DNA from: Acutalibacteraceae bacterium
GTDB lineage: Bacteria > Bacillota > Clostridia > Oscillospirales > Acutalibacteraceae
DNA length: 64,000 bases
Reading direction: 5' to 3'
Assembly: GCA_045544175.1 (NCBI GenBank)
Contig: JAZPYL010000064.1
Coordinates: forward strand, 57,332 to 121,331
The translations under genes and the position numbers were made by a program. Positions within the stretch are counted from its first letter, which is position 1; each line of letters begins with the position of its first letter. Below, piece after piece: positions 44,785 to 63,242 of the stretch. The notes beneath the pieces were generated by a model that made no database searches, was not told the DNA's origin, and saw nothing but the letters and a program-made list of their open reading frames with translations.

Positions 44785-46026
44785 CTACCGATACATTCTC
44801 ATAGGAAGCGGTACTTTATCCTTATTATGACCGGGAATTTTATTTTCAGTTAAAAGGCAGCAATTAATAACTGCATTTTCGCCGAAACGTCTTCTGAGAT
44901 CCATTACCGCATCATCAATTATTTTCTGTTTTTCGTGCTTTTTATAGTCAGCATAAAAGCTCATCTGCACCGGTTCATTATCGTTTCTCAGATTAATTGC
45001 CCTGACACTGACGGCTCTTACATCGTAATTCCAGTTATAATTCTTGCTGAAAAGGTCAATCGCCGTCTGTGCAATCTCAGTGGCAGACTGAGTGAGAAAT
45101 GGCATTTCACATTGAAATTGCCTTGTAAGAAGCTTATTATCCTTTACGGCGATTTGTACTCCCGATGCAGCTAAACTGGCTTCTCTGAGCCTTTTTGACA
45201 CATTCTGACTAAGAGAAAGGAAAACCTTCCATACCTCGTTGACATCAACCAAATCAGCTGTACAAGTAATACCGTGTCCTATACTTTTTATCGGTGCAGA
45301 ATATCCGTCAGGCATTACCCTTGAAGAATCCAGACCGTTAGCAAAGGTCCATATTTCATTCCCCTGAACACCCAGAATCTTTTCGAGCCACTGAACAGAT
45401 GAATTTGCAATATCTCCTATCGTTTTTATGCCGTAAGATGAAAGCTTTTTTGCCGTCTTTCTGCCGACGCCCATCATAGCACCTGCAGGTAAAGTCCATA
45501 CCTTTTCTTTGTAATCCTCTTTTGTAATTTTATACACTCCGTCATTTTCTGCAAGGTCACTGCCAAGCTTTGCAAAAATTTTGTTATAAGAAACACCTAC
45601 GGAAACCGTAAGTCCCAGCTCATTTTTAAAGCTCTCTTTTATTTCATCGATTATCTTATCTGCCGAACCGAAAAGCATTATACTCCCTGTAATGTCACAC
45701 CAGGCCTCATCAAGTCCCATGGGCTCGATTTTATCCGTATATCTTGCATATATTTCATGGGCAAGACGAAAATATTTGATGTATCGGTCAAAATGAGGTC
45801 TTACGACAATTAAATCAGGGCACTTCTGCTTCGCCTGCCATATAGGCTCACCTGTAGTTACGCCGTAAACCTTAGCCTCGGCAGTTTTTGCTAAAATTAT
45901 ACCGTGCCTTTCTTCAACAGAGCCGCCCACAGCTACAGGTTTACCTTTGAGTTCAGGATTCAGGCTGCACTCAATTGACGCATAACAGGAATTCATATCA
46001 GAATGTATTATTACTCTTTCCATCAT
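44785..46026 (-). CDS. Y-family DNA polymerase (DinB/UmuC-like translesion polymerase)
   Basis: IIHSDMNSCYASIE and LDEAW(C)DIT catalytic motifs. Start set to ATG 46026 (MMERV), 6 nt after GAGG, because the track start at 46050 lies in the LexA box. Confidence 0.88.
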   Translation of the reverse strand: MMERVIIHSDMNSCYASIECSLNPELKGKPVAVGGSVEERHGIILAKTAEAKVYGVTTGEPIWQAKQKCPDLIVVRPHFDRYIKYFRLAHEIYARYTDKIEPMGLDEAWCDITGSIMLFGSADKIIDEIKESFKNELGLTVSVGVSYNKIFAKLGSDLAENDGVYKITKEDYKEKVWTLPAGAMMGVGRKTAKKLSSYGIKTIGDIANSSVQWLEKILGVQGNEIWTFANGLDSSRVMPDGYSAPIKSIGHGITCTADLVDVNEVWKVFLSLSQNVSKRLREASLAASGVQIAVKDNKLLTRQFQCEMPFLTQSATEIAQTAIDLFSKNYNWNYDVRAVSVRAINLRNDNEPVQMSFYADYKKHEKQKIIDDAVMDLRRRFGENAVINCCLLTENKIPGHNKDKVPLPMRMYR

Positions 46027-46043
46027 TTGAAGCCTCACAAAAA

Positions 46044-46057
46044 AGAACATTTGTTCG
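46044..46057 (-). promoter_or_regulatory. LexA (Cheo/SOS) box upstream of the Y-family polymerase
   Basis: aGAACatttGTTCg is a perfect GAAC-N4-GTTC core, placed right after the -10 of the minus-strand promoter. Confidence 0.75.
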
Positions 46058-46062
46058 ATATA

Positions 46063-46091
46063 ATTATACTACCTTCTTTTACATTTGTCAA
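46063..46091 (-). promoter_or_regulatory. Sigma-A type promoter of the polymerase operon
   Basis: On the minus strand: TTGACA (46091-46086), 17 nt, TATAAT (46068-46063). Confidence 0.65.
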
Positions 46092-46127
46092 CATAAAAAG
46101 AGACAGAAAAAATCTGTCTCTGAGTTA

Positions 46128-47606
46128 TTATAAAATTATACAGATAAGACCGCTGCAACCTTCATTGATTACTCTTTCAAGAGTTTCCTGTAATTTCATT
46201 CTTGCATCAGTGGGCATTTTGTAAAGCTTATTATGAAGTCCCTCATTGACAAGACTGTCAAGGGTTTTACCGAATATATTTGACTGCCATATCTTTGACG
46301 GATCTTCCTCGAACTCTTTAAGAAGATACATAATAAGCTCTTCAGACTGACTTTCCGTACCTACAATTGGTGCAACCTCTGTATTTATATTGGCTTTAAG
46401 CATATGAATTGACGGAGCAGAGGCCTTAAGCCGAACGCCGTATCTCCCGCCCTGCTTCATAATCTCAGGATCTTCAAGCGTCAGCTCATTCATCGTCGGC
46501 ATCACAATTCCGTAACCTGTAGCCTCAACCTCTTCAAGAGCTGTCTGAAATCTCGCAAATTCCTTCTTTACCTGCGAAAGCTCAAGAAGAGAATTCATAA
46601 GCTGCTGTTCGTTATTAATTTCCACACCTGTTTTTTCAGTGATAACCTTGTAGAATAAATCCGGTGAAATTGTCACATTTACTTTCACCGAACCTGTCGA
46701 AAGCTCAATACCGCCAAGCTCACACCTATCGATATTATCCGCCTTTGAGACTTCGCCCTCAAACATTTTTGCATCCTTTACTTTTTTCAGTTCAGCCGCT
46801 GCAGAATAAATAGCTGAATAAATATTTTTTCTTATTGGATGCTCTCTTTCAAGACCTGTTATCCAGCGTGGAAAATCAATAAGCATTTCTTTAATCGGAA
46901 ATTCATATAAAAGCTCAGTTAAAATACCGCTAATCTGAGATGATGTCATTTCAAGACAGTTTACAGGAATAACACTGACGCTGTATTTTTCGCTCAATTT
47001 TTCTGCAAGAGACCTGCAACCTGCTGAATCAGGGTTTCGGCTGTTAAGCACAACAACAAAAGGCTTTTCTATTTCCTTGAGTTCATTTATAACTCTTTCT
47101 TCGGCTTTTTCATATTCTTCTCTCGGAATATCACTGATTGTGCCGTCGGTTGTAATAACAAGGCCGATTGTTGAATGTTCGGTAATAACCTTATTTGTGC
47201 CGACCTCAGCAGCCATATTAAAGGGTATCTCTTCTTCGTACCACGGTGTTTTAACCATTCTCGGTTGCTCATTTTCTATGTAGCCCAGTGATGACGGTAC
47301 AACATAACCGACACAGTCGATCATTCTCACTTTAAATTCCATCGAACCGTCAATTTTAACCTCAGCCGCCTCCTCGGGGATAAATTTCGGTTCAGTTGTC
47401 ATTATTGTCCTTCCTGACGAGGATTGCGGAAGCTCATCCATAGCTCTTTCTCTTTTGGCTGAATCCTCAATATTCGGCAGAACAAATTCATCCATAAAGC
47501 CTTTTATAAACGTAGATTTGCCTGTGCGTACAGGTCCTACTACACCAATATAAATATCTCCGCCCGTTCTTTTTGCAATGGAATCATATATGCTTGTGTT
47601 TGTCAT
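46128..47606 (-). CDS. spoIVA: Stage IV sporulation protein A (spore coat morphogenetic ATPase)
   Basis: IAKRTGGDIYIGVVGPVRTGKSTFIK matches the SpoIVA N-terminus and Walker A. ATG 47606 is preferred over the track TTG 47612 on RBS (AAGAGGA) spacing. Confidence 0.92.
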   Translation of the reverse strand: MTNTSIYDSIAKRTGGDIYIGVVGPVRTGKSTFIKGFMDEFVLPNIEDSAKRERAMDELPQSSSGRTIMTTEPKFIPEEAAEVKIDGSMEFKVRMIDCVGYVVPSSLGYIENEQPRMVKTPWYEEEIPFNMAAEVGTNKVITEHSTIGLVITTDGTISDIPREEYEKAEERVINELKEIEKPFVVVLNSRNPDSAGCRSLAEKLSEKYSVSVIPVNCLEMTSSQISGILTELLYEFPIKEMLIDFPRWITGLEREHPIRKNIYSAIYSAAAELKKVKDAKMFEGEVSKADNIDRCELGGIELSTGSVKVNVTISPDLFYKVITEKTGVEINNEQQLMNSLLELSQVKKEFARFQTALEEVEATGYGIVMPTMNELTLEDPEIMKQGGRYGVRLKASAPSIHMLKANINTEVAPIVGTESQSEELIMYLLKEFEEDPSKIWQSNIFGKTLDSLVNEGLHNKLYKMPTDARMKLQETLERVINEGCSGLICIIL

Positions 47607-47640
47607 CTGCAAATCCTCTTTTCAATCAATCTTCATTGAA

Positions 47641-58830: not shown

Positions 58831-61449
58831 TTATATCTCATCATAAGACAATGCTTTATTGAGCAATCTGACATTTACACCGATAAAAGTATCAGGAACC
58901 TCGCCCTTGAGATTGCAATAAACCGATTGCATACCGGCATTCAGATTTTTATTGAAATAGAGCTTCAGAACACCGTTTCTTTCCCTAACGGCAGTTATTT
59001 GTACAACATCAGTGCAACTTTCAGATGATTTAAGTGTGGAAACACCAACTCTGAATCTTACAAACCCATCATCACCGATATAAATCTCAATTTCATCGCC
59101 TTGCTTAAAGAGATGTTTAGCTTTATCATCAGTTATGTTTATTTCTACAGTGAAATCGCCGCTACCCCTGATTACGCAATCTGAAACTATATTTTTCTCA
59201 TAATAGCTGAACTCAAGTCTTATGTCAGCTTCATTATTCATAACATCCTTTACAGATAAAAGAGTCAGTTCATTTTCTTTATCAAAAAGCTCTTCAAACT
59301 CAATTACAGCTGTCATATAATCTTCAAGAAGGTTTATATTTTTTATTCTGTTTTCATTGCAGATAACTGACGAAATATCAACTGTCTGATTAAACTGCAC
59401 CTCAATTATTCTATCACTGACAGCTTTTACATATTCTGCTTTCAGCTCTTTCTTTCTTTTACCGAAATGCAGTATTCTGCTTTCATAAGGAGAGAGCCTG
59501 AGAGTTATTGTATCACCGTAAGAATAAGCTCCCTGACTGCCGCCGACAGTGTAAGGTAAAACCGTAAAAAGCTCACCAAAAGCAAAATCCTTGCTGACAC
59601 CGATAAGCTCATCAAGCCTCAATGTAAAGCTCTGTTCATTATCTGAGCTGTTTCTCACGGAAACAATTCCCTCGTGATCAGAAAAACAGCTGTACCCGTA
59701 TACCTTTGCCTGAGATGGTCTGCCGCCGAAGATAACGGAATTTGAAAGTACATCAATATTTTCCTCTATAAAACGCATACAGCTATAGTTTATACGCCAC
59801 TTGGCTTCATTCATCATATTGTAGCTGTAGTAAAGCTCCCAGAACTGTGTACCTCTTGTAGCCATCATAAACAGATAATCCCGGAACTCATTATCGGTCA
59901 TTGAAATCTTTGCTTCATTGCCGTAAATCGGCTCGTGATTATAGATGGCTCTCTGCGGGAACTGGAACTGACGGACCTTATAAAAGTCAAGATAAATCTC
60001 ATCACGGTAGCTGAGCATTCTGTCCTTATCAGATACACTGCCCTTTTTACCGATAAAGCCTATGTCTTCGCTGATCTGCAGCCACATACTGTTCACCCAC
60101 TGTAAAAACCAAGGAGACGGCCAGGCATAGCAGGTAAGATTAATCCAGAAATCACTGCCGCTGTTAAGGCTCAGCTTTTCAAAAGCCTTAATCCACTTTT
60201 CCCATACATCGCTATAGAAATACATATTTTTATAACCGCCTGTAAGGTGACCGTGATGTTTATTTTTGCAGGGCTTTCTGGCAAATCCGTCAAGCTTGAA
60301 ATAATTAATATCAAAACGTTTTTCGCAATCGACAAGAAAATCAGTTGTTTTATTTACATACTTTTCACTGCCGACACAGATATCAAGGGATTTTCTGTTT
60401 ACATAACCGTTACCGCCGGACTCAATTTTACGGGCAAATTTTATTGTATCCGAAGTATATCCGCCCCTCGGACCTAACCATAAACCGAATCGGGAGCCGA
60501 ATGACTCAGACAGTTTTTTCATCGGGTAAAGTTCATTGGGAAACTTACCGTTAAATGTCCAGAATGACTTTGAATAATCATTCCATCCGTCATCCATGAC
60601 ATAGGAATCAAGCGGCGGTTCACCTGTCGCTGTAAATTGCTTTTCCACCTCAAGAAAAGATTCAGTGATATTTTTTTCTGAAATATTAAGCATATGGTCA
60701 AACCATGAATTATACTGTCTTCTCAGATAGACAGGCTTTGAAATATCTTTTATGTACTCATAAAAAGACTTCTGAACCTGCTCATAAATATCACTCTCTG
60801 CACCACCGAGGACGCTTTTCGGTGACAAATATTTGTCGGAACCGATGATTTCGTGTAAGCTTTTGCCACTATAATATTTAACATTTGCCTTATAGTCAAT
60901 GATATTGTTTATTGCAGCAGGAAACTCACAACCCATGTAAAACGAATCAACATATACAGGCTGACCGAGAGATAAAGCAAAACCCGAAATAATTGAATCC
61001 TTCTGTTCAGGAATGGACCAATACTTGCTTTTTTCATCAATAATAAGATGCTCGAATTTAATATAATCAAGCTTAATTTCTTTCTTTCCTCTCTTTTCAA
61101 AAGAAAACTCAAGATGCTTTCTCATATAACAGCGAAAGTCGTTAAGTGTATATACAAGGCTGATTATTATCCTGCTGTCTCTTACCTTAACAGATTTAAA
61201 GTTAATTCTGTATTCCTTGCCACCGTCCGTTTCACAGCAGTGACAGTCAGAGATTTTAAGCTGAGAAGCAGACACAGTCATCGAGCCGAAGCCAACTTTG
61301 AAGTTAATTATAAACTCCTCTGAATTTTCGCCCGCAGATAATTGAATTCCGCTAAGGTTATTAGTAACTACACAGCCGTTAATTCTGCCCGATTTAATCT
61401 GTAGCTCCTTTTTTATATGAGGATTTTCAATAACAATATTGCTGTTCAT
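58831..61449 (-). CDS. Large glycoside hydrolase, alpha-galactosidase-like (clan GH-D TIM barrel, GH36/GH27-like) with extra C-terminal beta domains
   Basis: 872 aa. YVMDDGWNDY...FGLWLGP and NYFKLDGF resemble the DDGW and K(W/L)D nucleophile motifs of clan GH-D. Family not certain. Confidence 0.5.
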   Translation of the reverse strand: MNSNIVIENPHIKKELQIKSGRINGCVVTNNLSGIQLSAGENSEEFIINFKVGFGSMTVSASQLKISDCHCCETDGGKEYRINFKSVKVRDSRIIISLVYTLNDFRCYMRKHLEFSFEKRGKKEIKLDYIKFEHLIIDEKSKYWSIPEQKDSIISGFALSLGQPVYVDSFYMGCEFPAAINNIIDYKANVKYYSGKSLHEIIGSDKYLSPKSVLGGAESDIYEQVQKSFYEYIKDISKPVYLRRQYNSWFDHMLNISEKNITESFLEVEKQFTATGEPPLDSYVMDDGWNDYSKSFWTFNGKFPNELYPMKKLSESFGSRFGLWLGPRGGYTSDTIKFARKIESGGNGYVNRKSLDICVGSEKYVNKTTDFLVDCEKRFDINYFKLDGFARKPCKNKHHGHLTGGYKNMYFYSDVWEKWIKAFEKLSLNSGSDFWINLTCYAWPSPWFLQWVNSMWLQISEDIGFIGKKGSVSDKDRMLSYRDEIYLDFYKVRQFQFPQRAIYNHEPIYGNEAKISMTDNEFRDYLFMMATRGTQFWELYYSYNMMNEAKWRINYSCMRFIEENIDVLSNSVIFGGRPSQAKVYGYSCFSDHEGIVSVRNSSDNEQSFTLRLDELIGVSKDFAFGELFTVLPYTVGGSQGAYSYGDTITLRLSPYESRILHFGKRKKELKAEYVKAVSDRIIEVQFNQTVDISSVICNENRIKNINLLEDYMTAVIEFEELFDKENELTLLSVKDVMNNEADIRLEFSYYEKNIVSDCVIRGSGDFTVEINITDDKAKHLFKQGDEIEIYIGDDGFVRFRVGVSTLKSSESCTDVVQITAVRERNGVLKLYFNKNLNAGMQSVYCNLKGEVPDTFIGVNVRLLNKALSYDEI

Positions 61450-62398: not shown

Positions 62399-62582
62399 AT
62401 TTGTTCCTCCTTGGTAATACATTTTAAGTAATTATAACATAAGAAAATTTCAATTTCATTTATTTTTATAAATAATCCTTGTAGCATATTCAACAAAAAA
62501 CAGAAGTTTTTTTTGACAAAATTAAAATCTAACAAAAAAATCAATCAAAGTCCGTTTAATAGGACTCAAAAATTAAATTTAT

Positions 62583-62596
62583 CGAACATTTGTCTT
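62583..62596 (+). promoter_or_regulatory. Degenerate second LexA-like box overlapping the -35
   Basis: CGAACatttGTCT has a perfect left half and a 3/4 right half. Confidence 0.35.
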
Positions 62597-62622
62597 GACA
62601 TTTCGACAAATTGTGCTATAAT
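62595..62622 (+). promoter_or_regulatory. Sigma-A type promoter (extended -10) of the 83-aa ORF
   Basis: TTGACA (62595-62600), 16 nt, TGcTATAAT (62614-62622). Confidence 0.65.
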
Positions 62623-62636
62623 TTAATCAGAAACAA

Positions 62637-62650
62637 AGAACGAATGTTCG
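62637..62650 (+). promoter_or_regulatory. LexA (Cheo/SOS) box between -10 and RBS of the 83-aa ORF
   Basis: aGAACgaatGTTCg is a perfect GAAC-N4-GTTC core. Confidence 0.7.
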
Positions 62651-62668
62651 ATTAAGGAGGACAAATTT

Positions 62669-62920
62669 ATGTTTGATACATTAGGAAGCTTTTCGGTAGT
62701 ATATTTTATTCTTGCAACAATTCTTATTCTTTTAGTAGTTTTTGAGAAACAGTGTCTCAGACTTGAAGCCAAGTTTGATGCAAAGGTAAGAAAAATGAAA
62801 AACGCAAAAATGCAGAAAAACAGAGCAAAGGTTGTTCAGCAGAATAAGCAGAGACAGACACCTGTAAGGACACGACAGAATCCCCGTGCCTACAGAAAGA
62901 CGAGAAACTTTGCAGCATAA
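62669..62920 (+). CDS. 83-aa single-pass membrane protein with polybasic tail, LexA-box controlled (candidate SOS effector)
   Basis: Strong RBS AAGGAGG 8 nt upstream of the ATG. TM SFSVVYFILATILILLVVF. 19 K/R in the last 58 residues. Promoter plus GAAC-N4-GTTC box upstream. Confidence 0.6.
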   Translation: MFDTLGSFSVVYFILATILILLVVFEKQCLRLEAKFDAKVRKMKNAKMQKNRAKVVQQNKQRQTPVRTRQNPRAYRKTRNFAA

Positions 62921-62944: not shown

Positions 62945-62966
62945 AACTCCCGAAAATTCGGGAGTT
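62945..62966 (+). repeat. First copy of the 22-nt hairpin repeat AACTCCCGAAAATTCGGGAGTT
   Basis: Identical 22-mer recurs at 63213-63234 in the same orientation (loop AAAATT in both). Confidence 0.9.
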
Positions 62967-63212
62967 CAGCTTGTCGAAAAAGCATTTTCGACAAGCTAAC
63001 AGACTGCCGAGAATGTTGCAAGATGCCCTTTTCTTCACTCCGAAGGCGTACACGGGTACTCCGAGAGGGTGAAAAAAGGGCAAATATATGCGAAAATCCG
63101 GGGGAATTCGATATTCCTCCGGATTTTGTTAGCAATATTGTTATTATATCTGCTTTAATTTATATGTATATATATTTCGCATATATGTTCTTGCGACTTT
63201 ATCGACAGTCTG

Positions 63213-63242
63213 AACTCCCGAAAATTCGGGAGTTGTTTTTTT
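63213..63242 (+). terminator. Plus-strand intrinsic terminator (second copy of the AACTCCCG hairpin) followed by T7
   Basis: AACTCCCG-AAAATT-CGGGAGTT (63213-63234), then G + TTTTTTT. Confidence 0.65.

Follow-up and report, generated by a model that had tools for sequence, protein, structure and literature searches.

A small membrane protein behind paired LexA-type boxes, a candidate SOS effector of gut and rumen Clostridia

The subject of this report is a short gene in a 64-kb stretch of DNA from an Acutalibacteraceae bacterium (the whole stretch is called the window below), which encodes an 83-residue membrane protein (62669-62920 on the plus strand, with the ATG at 62669 as given in the list of open reading frames, ORFs). 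In front of it lies a promoter of the sigma-70 type (62595-62622, plus strand), composed of TTGACA at 62595-62600, a 16-nt spacer and a TGcTATAAT element that ends at 62622. With a 12/12 match and an extended -10, this was the top-scoring site of the region in a consensus scan, and it is conserved in the orthologues. Box 1, AGAACGAATGTTCG (62637-62650), is a perfect GAAC-N4-GTTC match to the LexA operator between the -10 and the ribosome-binding site (RBS); it starts 15 nt past the -10, which puts it shortly after the predicted start of transcription. Box 2, CGAACATTTGTCTT (62583-62596), is a LexA-type box further upstream that overlaps the -35 hexamer. The RBS, AAGGAGG (62654-62660, plus strand), stands 8 nt from the ATG, and its GGAGG is kept in all subfamilies of the gene; the predicted 5' untranslated region (UTR) is about 40 nt long and leaves this strong RBS exposed. 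Promoter, box 1 and RBS were all found where the original prediction, a model's reading of the DNA letters, had placed them. The upstream box that it reported as a 7/8 match, CGAACATTTGTCT, stands only if the degenerate half-site GTTY (GTT[CT]) is allowed, and falls to 6/8 against the strict GAAC/GTTC palindrome.

In Bacillus subtilis the LexA consensus, CGAAC-RNRY-GTTYC, has the spacer RNRY, and the spacer of box 1 fits this form. Both boxes occupy positions at which a Firmicute LexA would occlude RNA polymerase, box 1 past the -10 and box 2 on the -35, and such a dual operator bracketing the polymerase implies tight repression. The motif is scarce in the window: GAAC-N4-GTTC occurs twice (cores at 46045 and 62638) against 0.5 copies expected, and all 19 core matches with one mismatch fall within or at the ends of ORFs. 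The second perfect box (46044-46057), which serves as an internal control, lies in the promoter of a gene on the minus strand (44785-46026) that encodes a Y-family polymerase, as judged from its IMS, IMS_C and IMS_HHH_1 domains; the count thus bears out the earlier statement that the only other perfect box of the window is on this promoter. The layout there is alike, with TTGACA, 17 nt, TATAAT and then the box. Both clostridial and Bacillus LexA bind GAAC-N4-GTT[CT] as their operator, and the uvrB gene of C. difficile carries its LexA box at -30 (PMC4234289).

For comparison we fetched 215 kb of DNA around homologue loci. The full alignment of 57 protein sequences was too diverse for pattern scans, so a subset of 13 sequences was used; the alignment for the metagenome scan left out the clade of the window protein, and the scan returned 13 further loci. 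Within the window clade, six orthologues with 58-94% protein identity have an identical box 1, -10 and RBS, and their box 2 and -35 are identical save for single-base changes. In the orthologues that keep these promoter elements synonymous sites are near saturation, with a proportion of synonymous differences (pS) of up to 0.86, and the DNA between and upstream of the elements has diverged or carries indels. The long forms among the 13 metagenome loci have a perfect box 29-31 nt upstream of the ATG, preceded by TATAAT and followed by GGAGG, with two exceptions, L026 and L027, and two further long forms on long contigs show an identical promoter layout. The same layout recurs in independent subfamilies that share only 30-43% protein identity, and in every long-form subfamily box 1 is placed at -29 to -32 relative to the ATG. 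Box 2 is fused to the -35 (GAACATTTGTnTTGAC; GAACATTTGT[C/A/G]TTGAC) in 17/17 long-form loci, the centres of the two boxes are 54 bp apart in 15 of these 17, and the distance from the -10 to box 1 was 15 nt wherever it was measured, except in L026 and L027 (17 and 18 nt). To the question whether orthologues in related Clostridia keep the box, raised with the original prediction, the answer is that they do, across subfamilies of roughly 30-40% protein identity.

Both exceptional loci have features of their own. In L027 the leader is longer than in the other long forms. In L026 box 1 is weakened to AAAC..GTTT (AAAACGAATGTTTT) and the boxes are spaced by 56 bp; an IS30-like transposase and an AraC-type regulator adjoin the gene (865-2172 and 2499-2798), the locus being rearranged and outside the usual synteny. 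This copy may be escaping LexA control. All but one of the perfect boxes in the 215 kb stand in front of a member of the family, and this comparison is the best argument against a chance occurrence. The remaining one (L032 16016-16029, GGAACATTGGTTCC) is part of a GC-rich hairpin and adjoins the serine recombinase of a prophage-like region; it is probably no LexA site but a terminator or some att-type structure.

From the conserved boxes, the control promoter of the Y-family polymerase and the match to the clostridial LexA motif, we conclude that the gene very probably belongs to the SOS regulon. The suggestion that the motif is a real LexA operator in this lineage is likewise favoured by the footprint that the boxes leave among diverged flanks and by their rarity elsewhere in the window and in the fetched loci. 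In gut and rumen Clostridia the gene would thus appear to be on only after DNA damage. Conceivably some other regulator binds the boxes, or the gene is not damage-inducible and the palindromes are kept for another reason; the motif was cross-checked in this lineage on the polymerase promoter and not on lexA, recA or uvr, and the conserved inverted repeat at about -72 points to possible further factors at this promoter. We nevertheless hold this to be very improbable, as the motif is the canonical Firmicute and clostridial LexA operator, spacer included, is found on the promoter of a classic class of SOS gene in the same window, and is otherwise essentially absent from the 64 kb and the 215 kb.

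The ORF is, judging from its pattern of substitution, a real and translated gene. Among orthologues the ratio of nonsynonymous to synonymous substitution (dN/dS) lies at 0.06-0.32 for the whole protein and at 0.00-0.19 for residues 1-39. In the tail, synonymous differences go up to 0.6-0.86, and the indels preserve the frame. A word-indexed search returned 11 close clusters, an exhaustive profile search 59 clusters at 50% identity (41-126 residues, all aligned from residue 1) and a broader profile 261 clusters at 90% identity. Where the sources name these proteins at all they give 'hypothetical protein' only, and none has a Pfam domain. The window protein yields sub-threshold noise only in Pfam (even at E<=10) and NCBIfam, with no YneA model or equivalog, and so do it and representative homologues in PHROGs and PADLOC; a profile search of the PDB gave chance transmembrane (TM) matches only, with E>=0.027. 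The family is therefore unannotated and previously unnamed as far as these libraries reach, which agrees with the claim that the protein was undescribed, and the predicted lack of a LysM domain was borne out in the Pfam search. A scan of GTDB species gave a single hit, in an Acutalibacteraceae metagenome-assembled genome (MAG); the remaining loci were drawn from metagenomes of gut and rumen type.

Members share a signature of MF(D/E/N)T(L/I)(G/E)SF(S/T), a TM helix, (I/L)FE(K/E)xL(I/L)ALE(D)K(F/Y)D and a basic tail. In the window protein these parts correspond to a conserved N-terminus (residues 1-8, MFDTLGSF, predicted to be outside the cell), a TM helix without polar or charged residues (9-25), a conserved acidic and amphipathic juxtamembrane helix, EKQCLRLEAKFDAK (26-39), a polybasic tail of variable sequence (40-81) and a terminal Ala-Ala-COOH (82-83). 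Conservation is concentrated in residues 1-39, and the tail is conserved in composition only. The original prediction's count for the stretch behind the TM helix, 58 residues of which 19 are K/R and 3 D/E, is exact; the 45 residues past the juxtamembrane motif hold 16 K/R and no acidic residue. Throughout the family the N-terminal flank has a mean net charge of -0.9 (range -3 to 0, never net positive) and the C-terminal part one of +7.8, from which the positive-inside rule predicts an N-out/C-in orientation. This charge distribution is in line with the earlier proposal that the tail would be cytoplasmic, unlike the active parts of YneA and SosA. AlphaFold2, run on the 57-sequence alignment (mean predicted local distance difference test score, pLDDT, of 80), models helices at residues 5-24 and 26-62 with a break at 25, and residues 63-83 as an unstructured coil of low confidence. 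Four proteins of 99-110 residues (P0035, P0061, P0064 and P0068) have the family N-terminus and TM helix and a long C-terminal extension (..INSINLE.LRQERL..), probably a coiled coil, in place of the basic tail and the Ala-Ala.

Counting as long forms the clusters of at least 70 residues (n=125, with 43 shorter clusters), an Ala-Ala end is found in 117/125 long forms, as against about 1.5% expected from the composition of the tail, and in 0/43 of the short ones. Position -3 is F, I, L, Y or V in 100 of the 117, and the window protein itself ends in NFAA (Ala-Ala codons at 62912-62917, plus strand). The Ala codons and the stop codon differ between orthologues, and selection therefore acts on the peptide. 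The end is thus hydrophobic-Ala-Ala-COOH and, by the disorder in the AlphaFold2 model, accessible, as in ssrA-like degrons. Terminal Ala-Ala is a critical determinant of ssrA-type degrons for ClpXP, and an ssrA-tagged inner-membrane protein is degraded by FtsH (PMC10862746). Given the predicted cytoplasmic and disordered C-terminus, the Ala-Ala end is most simply read as a putative built-in degron.

Besides the long chromosomal forms of about 76-87 residues, the family includes short forms of 41-68 residues, which retain only some 10-20 basic residues. The eight short-form loci L009-L011, L017, L018, L025, L032 and L033 have no LexA box and no synteny with the hydrolase gene that neighbours the long forms. 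Where there is enough context, short forms are found in prophage-like regions: the neighbours in L017 and L018 match phage families, L032 holds a block with a GH25 endolysin, Phage_holin_1, ParA and a serine recombinase, and L033 lies within a long run of small ORFs on the same strand. Box, -AA ending and genomic context are thus correlated across the family. When residues 1-42 are compared, many short forms each match a single long-form clade at 76-100% identity, L017, L018, L032 and L033 among them, and the short forms are interleaved with the host clades; it follows that tail-less versions arose repeatedly. Pattern scans of IMG/VR returned no relatives and tblastn against 50,697 deposited phages nothing for either the long or the short form, so that the link to phages comes only from the context on metagenomic and MAG contigs.

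Further features of the locus lie on both sides of the gene. An A/T-rich stretch, AAAAATTAAATTTAT (62568-62582, plus strand), abuts box 2 and the -35 on the upstream side; its consensus, AAAA(T/C)xAAA(A/T)TT, is conserved in all subfamilies, and it may act as an UP-element-like sequence. Upstream of this stretch is an inverted repeat, AAAGTCC-N8-GGACT (62547-62566, plus strand), centred at about -72 from the predicted transcription start, which stands 26 nt before box 2 in 16/17 long-form loci. Its left arm GTCC is invariant and its right arm is GGAC, GGAT or GTAC; as AAGTCC-N7/8-GGA(C/T) the repeat is conserved in every long-form subfamily (L001-L030), and when GGAC becomes GGAT the arms still pair on the plus strand, but only by G-U. 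The repeat could be the site of a second regulator, or a 5' RNA hairpin if transcription begins at a promoter-like site further up (TTGACA at 62513). We considered it as a terminator and rejected this, since in other subfamilies it has no T-tract on either strand. The neighbouring alpha/beta hydrolase was rejected as a LexA target, its -10 and RBS being about 150 nt or more from the boxes and on the other strand.

The neighbours of the gene are this hydrolase and either a CDF transporter or a PASTA kinase, and across genera the gene is chromosomal and stably syntenic with such housekeeping genes. The hydrolase is 63-99% identical across loci, and the small protein falls to about 30%. An 872-residue ORF (58831-61449, minus strand) is syntenic with the hydrolase in all clades at 40-96% identity, and its relatives have no Pfam domain on record. 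The PASTA-domain Ser/Thr kinase, PrkC-like (L028 10345-12252, L030 10323-12158, L013 13245-15035), is the next gene downstream, with the same orientation, in two subfamilies, where the intervening terminator overlaps the promoter-like site of the kinase, and lies a few genes off in the window clade; a link to the family gene via cell-wall or division signalling is possible. An S24-peptidase motif is absent from all frames of the window, and lexA, recA and uvrAB are not among its genes. Elsewhere in the window the Y-family polymerase gene is directly downstream of spoIVA on the same strand (44785-47612, minus), and mutS, mutL and gyrase/topoisomerase-like genes are present, as identified from N-terminal ORF sequences only; these genes mark the organism as a spore-forming member of the Clostridia. 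Rfam gave no match in the gene region (E-value mode) or in the whole window (gathering mode), and ARAGORN found no tRNA or tmRNA.

Downstream, the gene and the convergent CDF gene share a bidirectional terminator hairpin, AACTCCCGAAAATTCGGGAGTT (62945-62966). In the relatives L013, L008 and L001 this hairpin is single and followed by its T-tract, and in the window genome an insertion of 268 bp (62967-63234), not found in the closest relative, L013, parts the hairpin from the T-tract of the plus strand. The insertion ends in a second copy of the hairpin (63213-63234), a direct repeat of 22 nt, after which the T-tract follows. Its ends form imperfect inverted repeats (CAGCTTGTCGAAAAAG / CTTTATCGACAGTCTG), hairpins occur inside it, and it folds to -141.6 kcal/mol. 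Since it belongs to no Rfam family and has no second copy in the window, it looks like a miniature inverted-repeat transposable element (MITE), and its probable effect, confined to the window genome, is a longer 3' UTR of the gene. A promoter scan found no promoter-like site antisense to the ORF or just downstream of it, and in the relatives that place holds a terminator only.

With these features in mind, one may speculate on what the protein does. We see about an even chance that it is a LexA-repressed, proteolytically timed, small bitopic membrane effector, most likely a division inhibitor that works through residues 1-39. According to this model, in undamaged cells LexA would sit on both operators, 54 bp or about five helical turns apart, and silence the consensus promoter. 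DNA damage would remove LexA, and a monocistronic mRNA with a strong, exposed RBS would be translated. The protein would insert N-out/C-in, with residues 1-39 (the outer tip, the TM helix and the juxtamembrane helix) as its active core, and, as YneA, SosA and SidA suggest by analogy, this core may bind a protein in the membrane, with FtsW or another late component of the divisome as the likeliest choice, so that division pauses. The disordered hydrophobic-Ala-Ala end would mark the protein for degradation by a cytoplasmic AAA+ protease (ClpXP or FtsH), and the block would lift soon after LexA re-represses. Prophages, in this model, would repeatedly carry the same core in a tail-less, degron-less and LexA-independent form.

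Overall the evidence leans to a reversible checkpoint effector with a specific partner over a membrane toxin, because of the conserved outer N-terminus and juxtamembrane helix, the Ala-Ala, the missing antisense promoter and the strong exposed RBS. An SOS-induced, membrane-damaging toxin of the TisB/DinQ type, which would lower proton-motive force and ATP and lead to dormancy or persistence while the degron limits the damage, would share LexA control, small size, a single hydrophobic helix and very tight dual-operator repression; the sequence is compatible with an oligomeric pore, and the polybasic tail could bind anionic lipids. We give it a small chance, however. At 76-87 residues the long forms are far above the roughly 30 residues of TisB and DinQ, their TM helix has no polar or charged residues, and the strong purifying selection on the outer N-terminus and juxtamembrane helix (the dN/dS given above for residues 1-39) suggests a specific partner. 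The short 5' UTR and exposed strong RBS, the lack of an antisense promoter-like site and the lone terminator in relatives further indicate that type I antisense-RNA control is missing, and a type I toxin-antitoxin system was set aside as the leading interpretation because the gene has neither an antisense promoter nor a structured 5' UTR. The basic stretch, with its 16 K/R and no acidic residue, much of which AlphaFold2 continues as a helix, might instead bind DNA (or RNA or ribosomes) and so tether the damaged nucleoid to the membrane, for Noc-like occlusion or the organising of repair. We consider this quite improbable, for it is the N-terminus, TM helix and juxtamembrane helix that are conserved, and the tail is hypervariable and dispensable in the short forms.

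Another idea, to which we likewise assign a low probability, is that of a domesticated phage gene used in conflict between phage and host, for superinfection exclusion, for blocking prophage lysis or DNA entry during SOS, or as decoy or antagonist of the phage-borne short form, and not as a cell-cycle checkpoint of the host. The tail-less homologues in prophage-like early regions, interleaved with host clades, would fit, and as SOS is the signal for prophage induction a co-induced host gene could counteract the prophage. Yet there was no match in PADLOC, PHROGs, IMG/VR or the deposited phage genomes, the gene keeps its stable chromosomal synteny with housekeeping neighbours across genera, and phage copies of host division inhibitors would be expected of a checkpoint effector too. 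The division-checkpoint model is itself weakened on several sides. The LexA motif of the lineage was cross-checked on one other promoter only, that of the Y-family polymerase, and LexA binding, induction, topology, turnover, phenotype, division target and degron function are all things that we infer. A cytoplasmic polybasic tail is without precedent among characterised Gram-positive SOS division inhibitors; and as the gene is not beside lexA and its product has neither an extracellular domain nor LysM, the analogy with YneA, SosA and ChiZ is functional only. For ClpXP an Ala-Ala end by itself does not always suffice, since the residues before it count and a polar or Gly/Ser context makes for a weak degron (PMC10862746), and position -4 in the family is mostly G or N. 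Genomic context, lastly, covers about ten short forms, and some 'short' clusters could be truncated chromosomal alleles. Taking all this together, division inhibition is the function that we favour, by analogy, with an even chance at best or slightly less. It is more doubtful, and we put it forward tentatively as the less likely case, that the family forms a mechanistically new class of SOS checkpoint effector, working inside the bilayer or at its cytoplasmic side by way of residues 1-39, with a lifetime set by a degron that ClpXP or FtsH reads, and that phages have taken over this core repeatedly, as a degron-less, LexA-independent version with which they arrest the host irreversibly.

The effector that connects DNA damage to division is not known for most Clostridia, including the abundant Oscillospirales of gut and rumen, and our search of the literature found none described for Clostridia. 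The family offers a concrete candidate for an SOS checkpoint in gut and rumen Clostridia, with an unusually clean regulatory signature. If the model is true, SOS membrane inhibitors can act other than from outside the cell, and checkpoint recovery is built in by a cytoplasmic ssrA-type degron, not left to extracellular proteases, which would be the first such recovery logic for a membrane-bound SOS inhibitor; phages, moreover, would mimic a host checkpoint protein in stabilised form. The near-invariant dual-operator promoter is in addition a potential SOS reporter for poorly tractable anaerobes.

The SOS division inhibitors of Gram-positive bacteria are small single-TM proteins (PMC6851548). 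The TM helix of YneA binds TM7 of FtsW, other SOS inhibitors being predicted to do likewise (PMC13396833), and YneA is cleared by proteolysis for checkpoint recovery (PMC6051672). With YneA of Bacillus subtilis and Listeria and ChiZ of Mycobacterium the family has in common small size, LexA repression that is tight and exerted from multiple operators, and a single TM helix; it differs in having no LysM domain and no sequence similarity, in an inverted predicted topology that places most of the protein in the cytoplasm, and in a gene that is not beside lexA. The putative degron would be cytoplasmic and ssrA-like, whereas proteins of the YneA type are substrates of the extracellular proteases CtpA/DdcP. 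SosA of Staphylococcus is similar in size, with 77 residues as compared to 76-87, and likewise has an N-terminal TM helix and its most conserved segment beside the membrane. SosA without its C-terminal 10 residues is stabilised and more potent (PMC6851548); the extreme C-terminus thus governs SosA turnover, and the natural short forms of the family parallel this hyperactive, stable truncation. In contrast, the C-terminus of SosA is extracellular, as seen with PhoA-LacZ fusions, and handled by CtpA, and SosA is beside lexA. Protein-database, exhaustive HMM and NCBIfam searches gave no named relative, SosA included, and no pairwise alignment with SosA was made. SidA and DidA of Caulobacter are also small, damage-induced, hydrophobic membrane inhibitors, which probably act on late divisome proteins within the membrane (see also PMC13396833). 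They are much shorter, however, have no long cytoplasmic tail or Ala-Ala, and belong to another phylum with another LexA motif.

TisB and DinQ, the type I toxins of E. coli, are LexA-controlled small membrane peptides as well. At about 30 residues, with antisense RNAs, structured 5' UTRs and polar pore-lining residues, they have features of which none is seen in the family. The small prophage proteins Kil of lambda, DicB of Qin and KilR of Rac act early after induction and block host division, and so parallel the prophage-borne short forms. They are unrelated to these in sequence, and we know of none among them that is a truncated copy of a host SOS effector. SulA of E. coli is a LexA-repressed inhibitor that is cleared by Lon for recovery (PMC13396833), and the logic of repression by LexA and clearance by a cytoplasmic AAA+ protease is the one proposed here, although SulA itself is soluble, binds FtsZ, lacks a membrane anchor and is not homologous to the family. 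Small membrane effectors induced by the SOS response are thus known, and the present family, as read from its sequences, appears to be new among them in its homology, its predicted topology, its ssrA-like end and the truncated copies of it that phages seem to carry.

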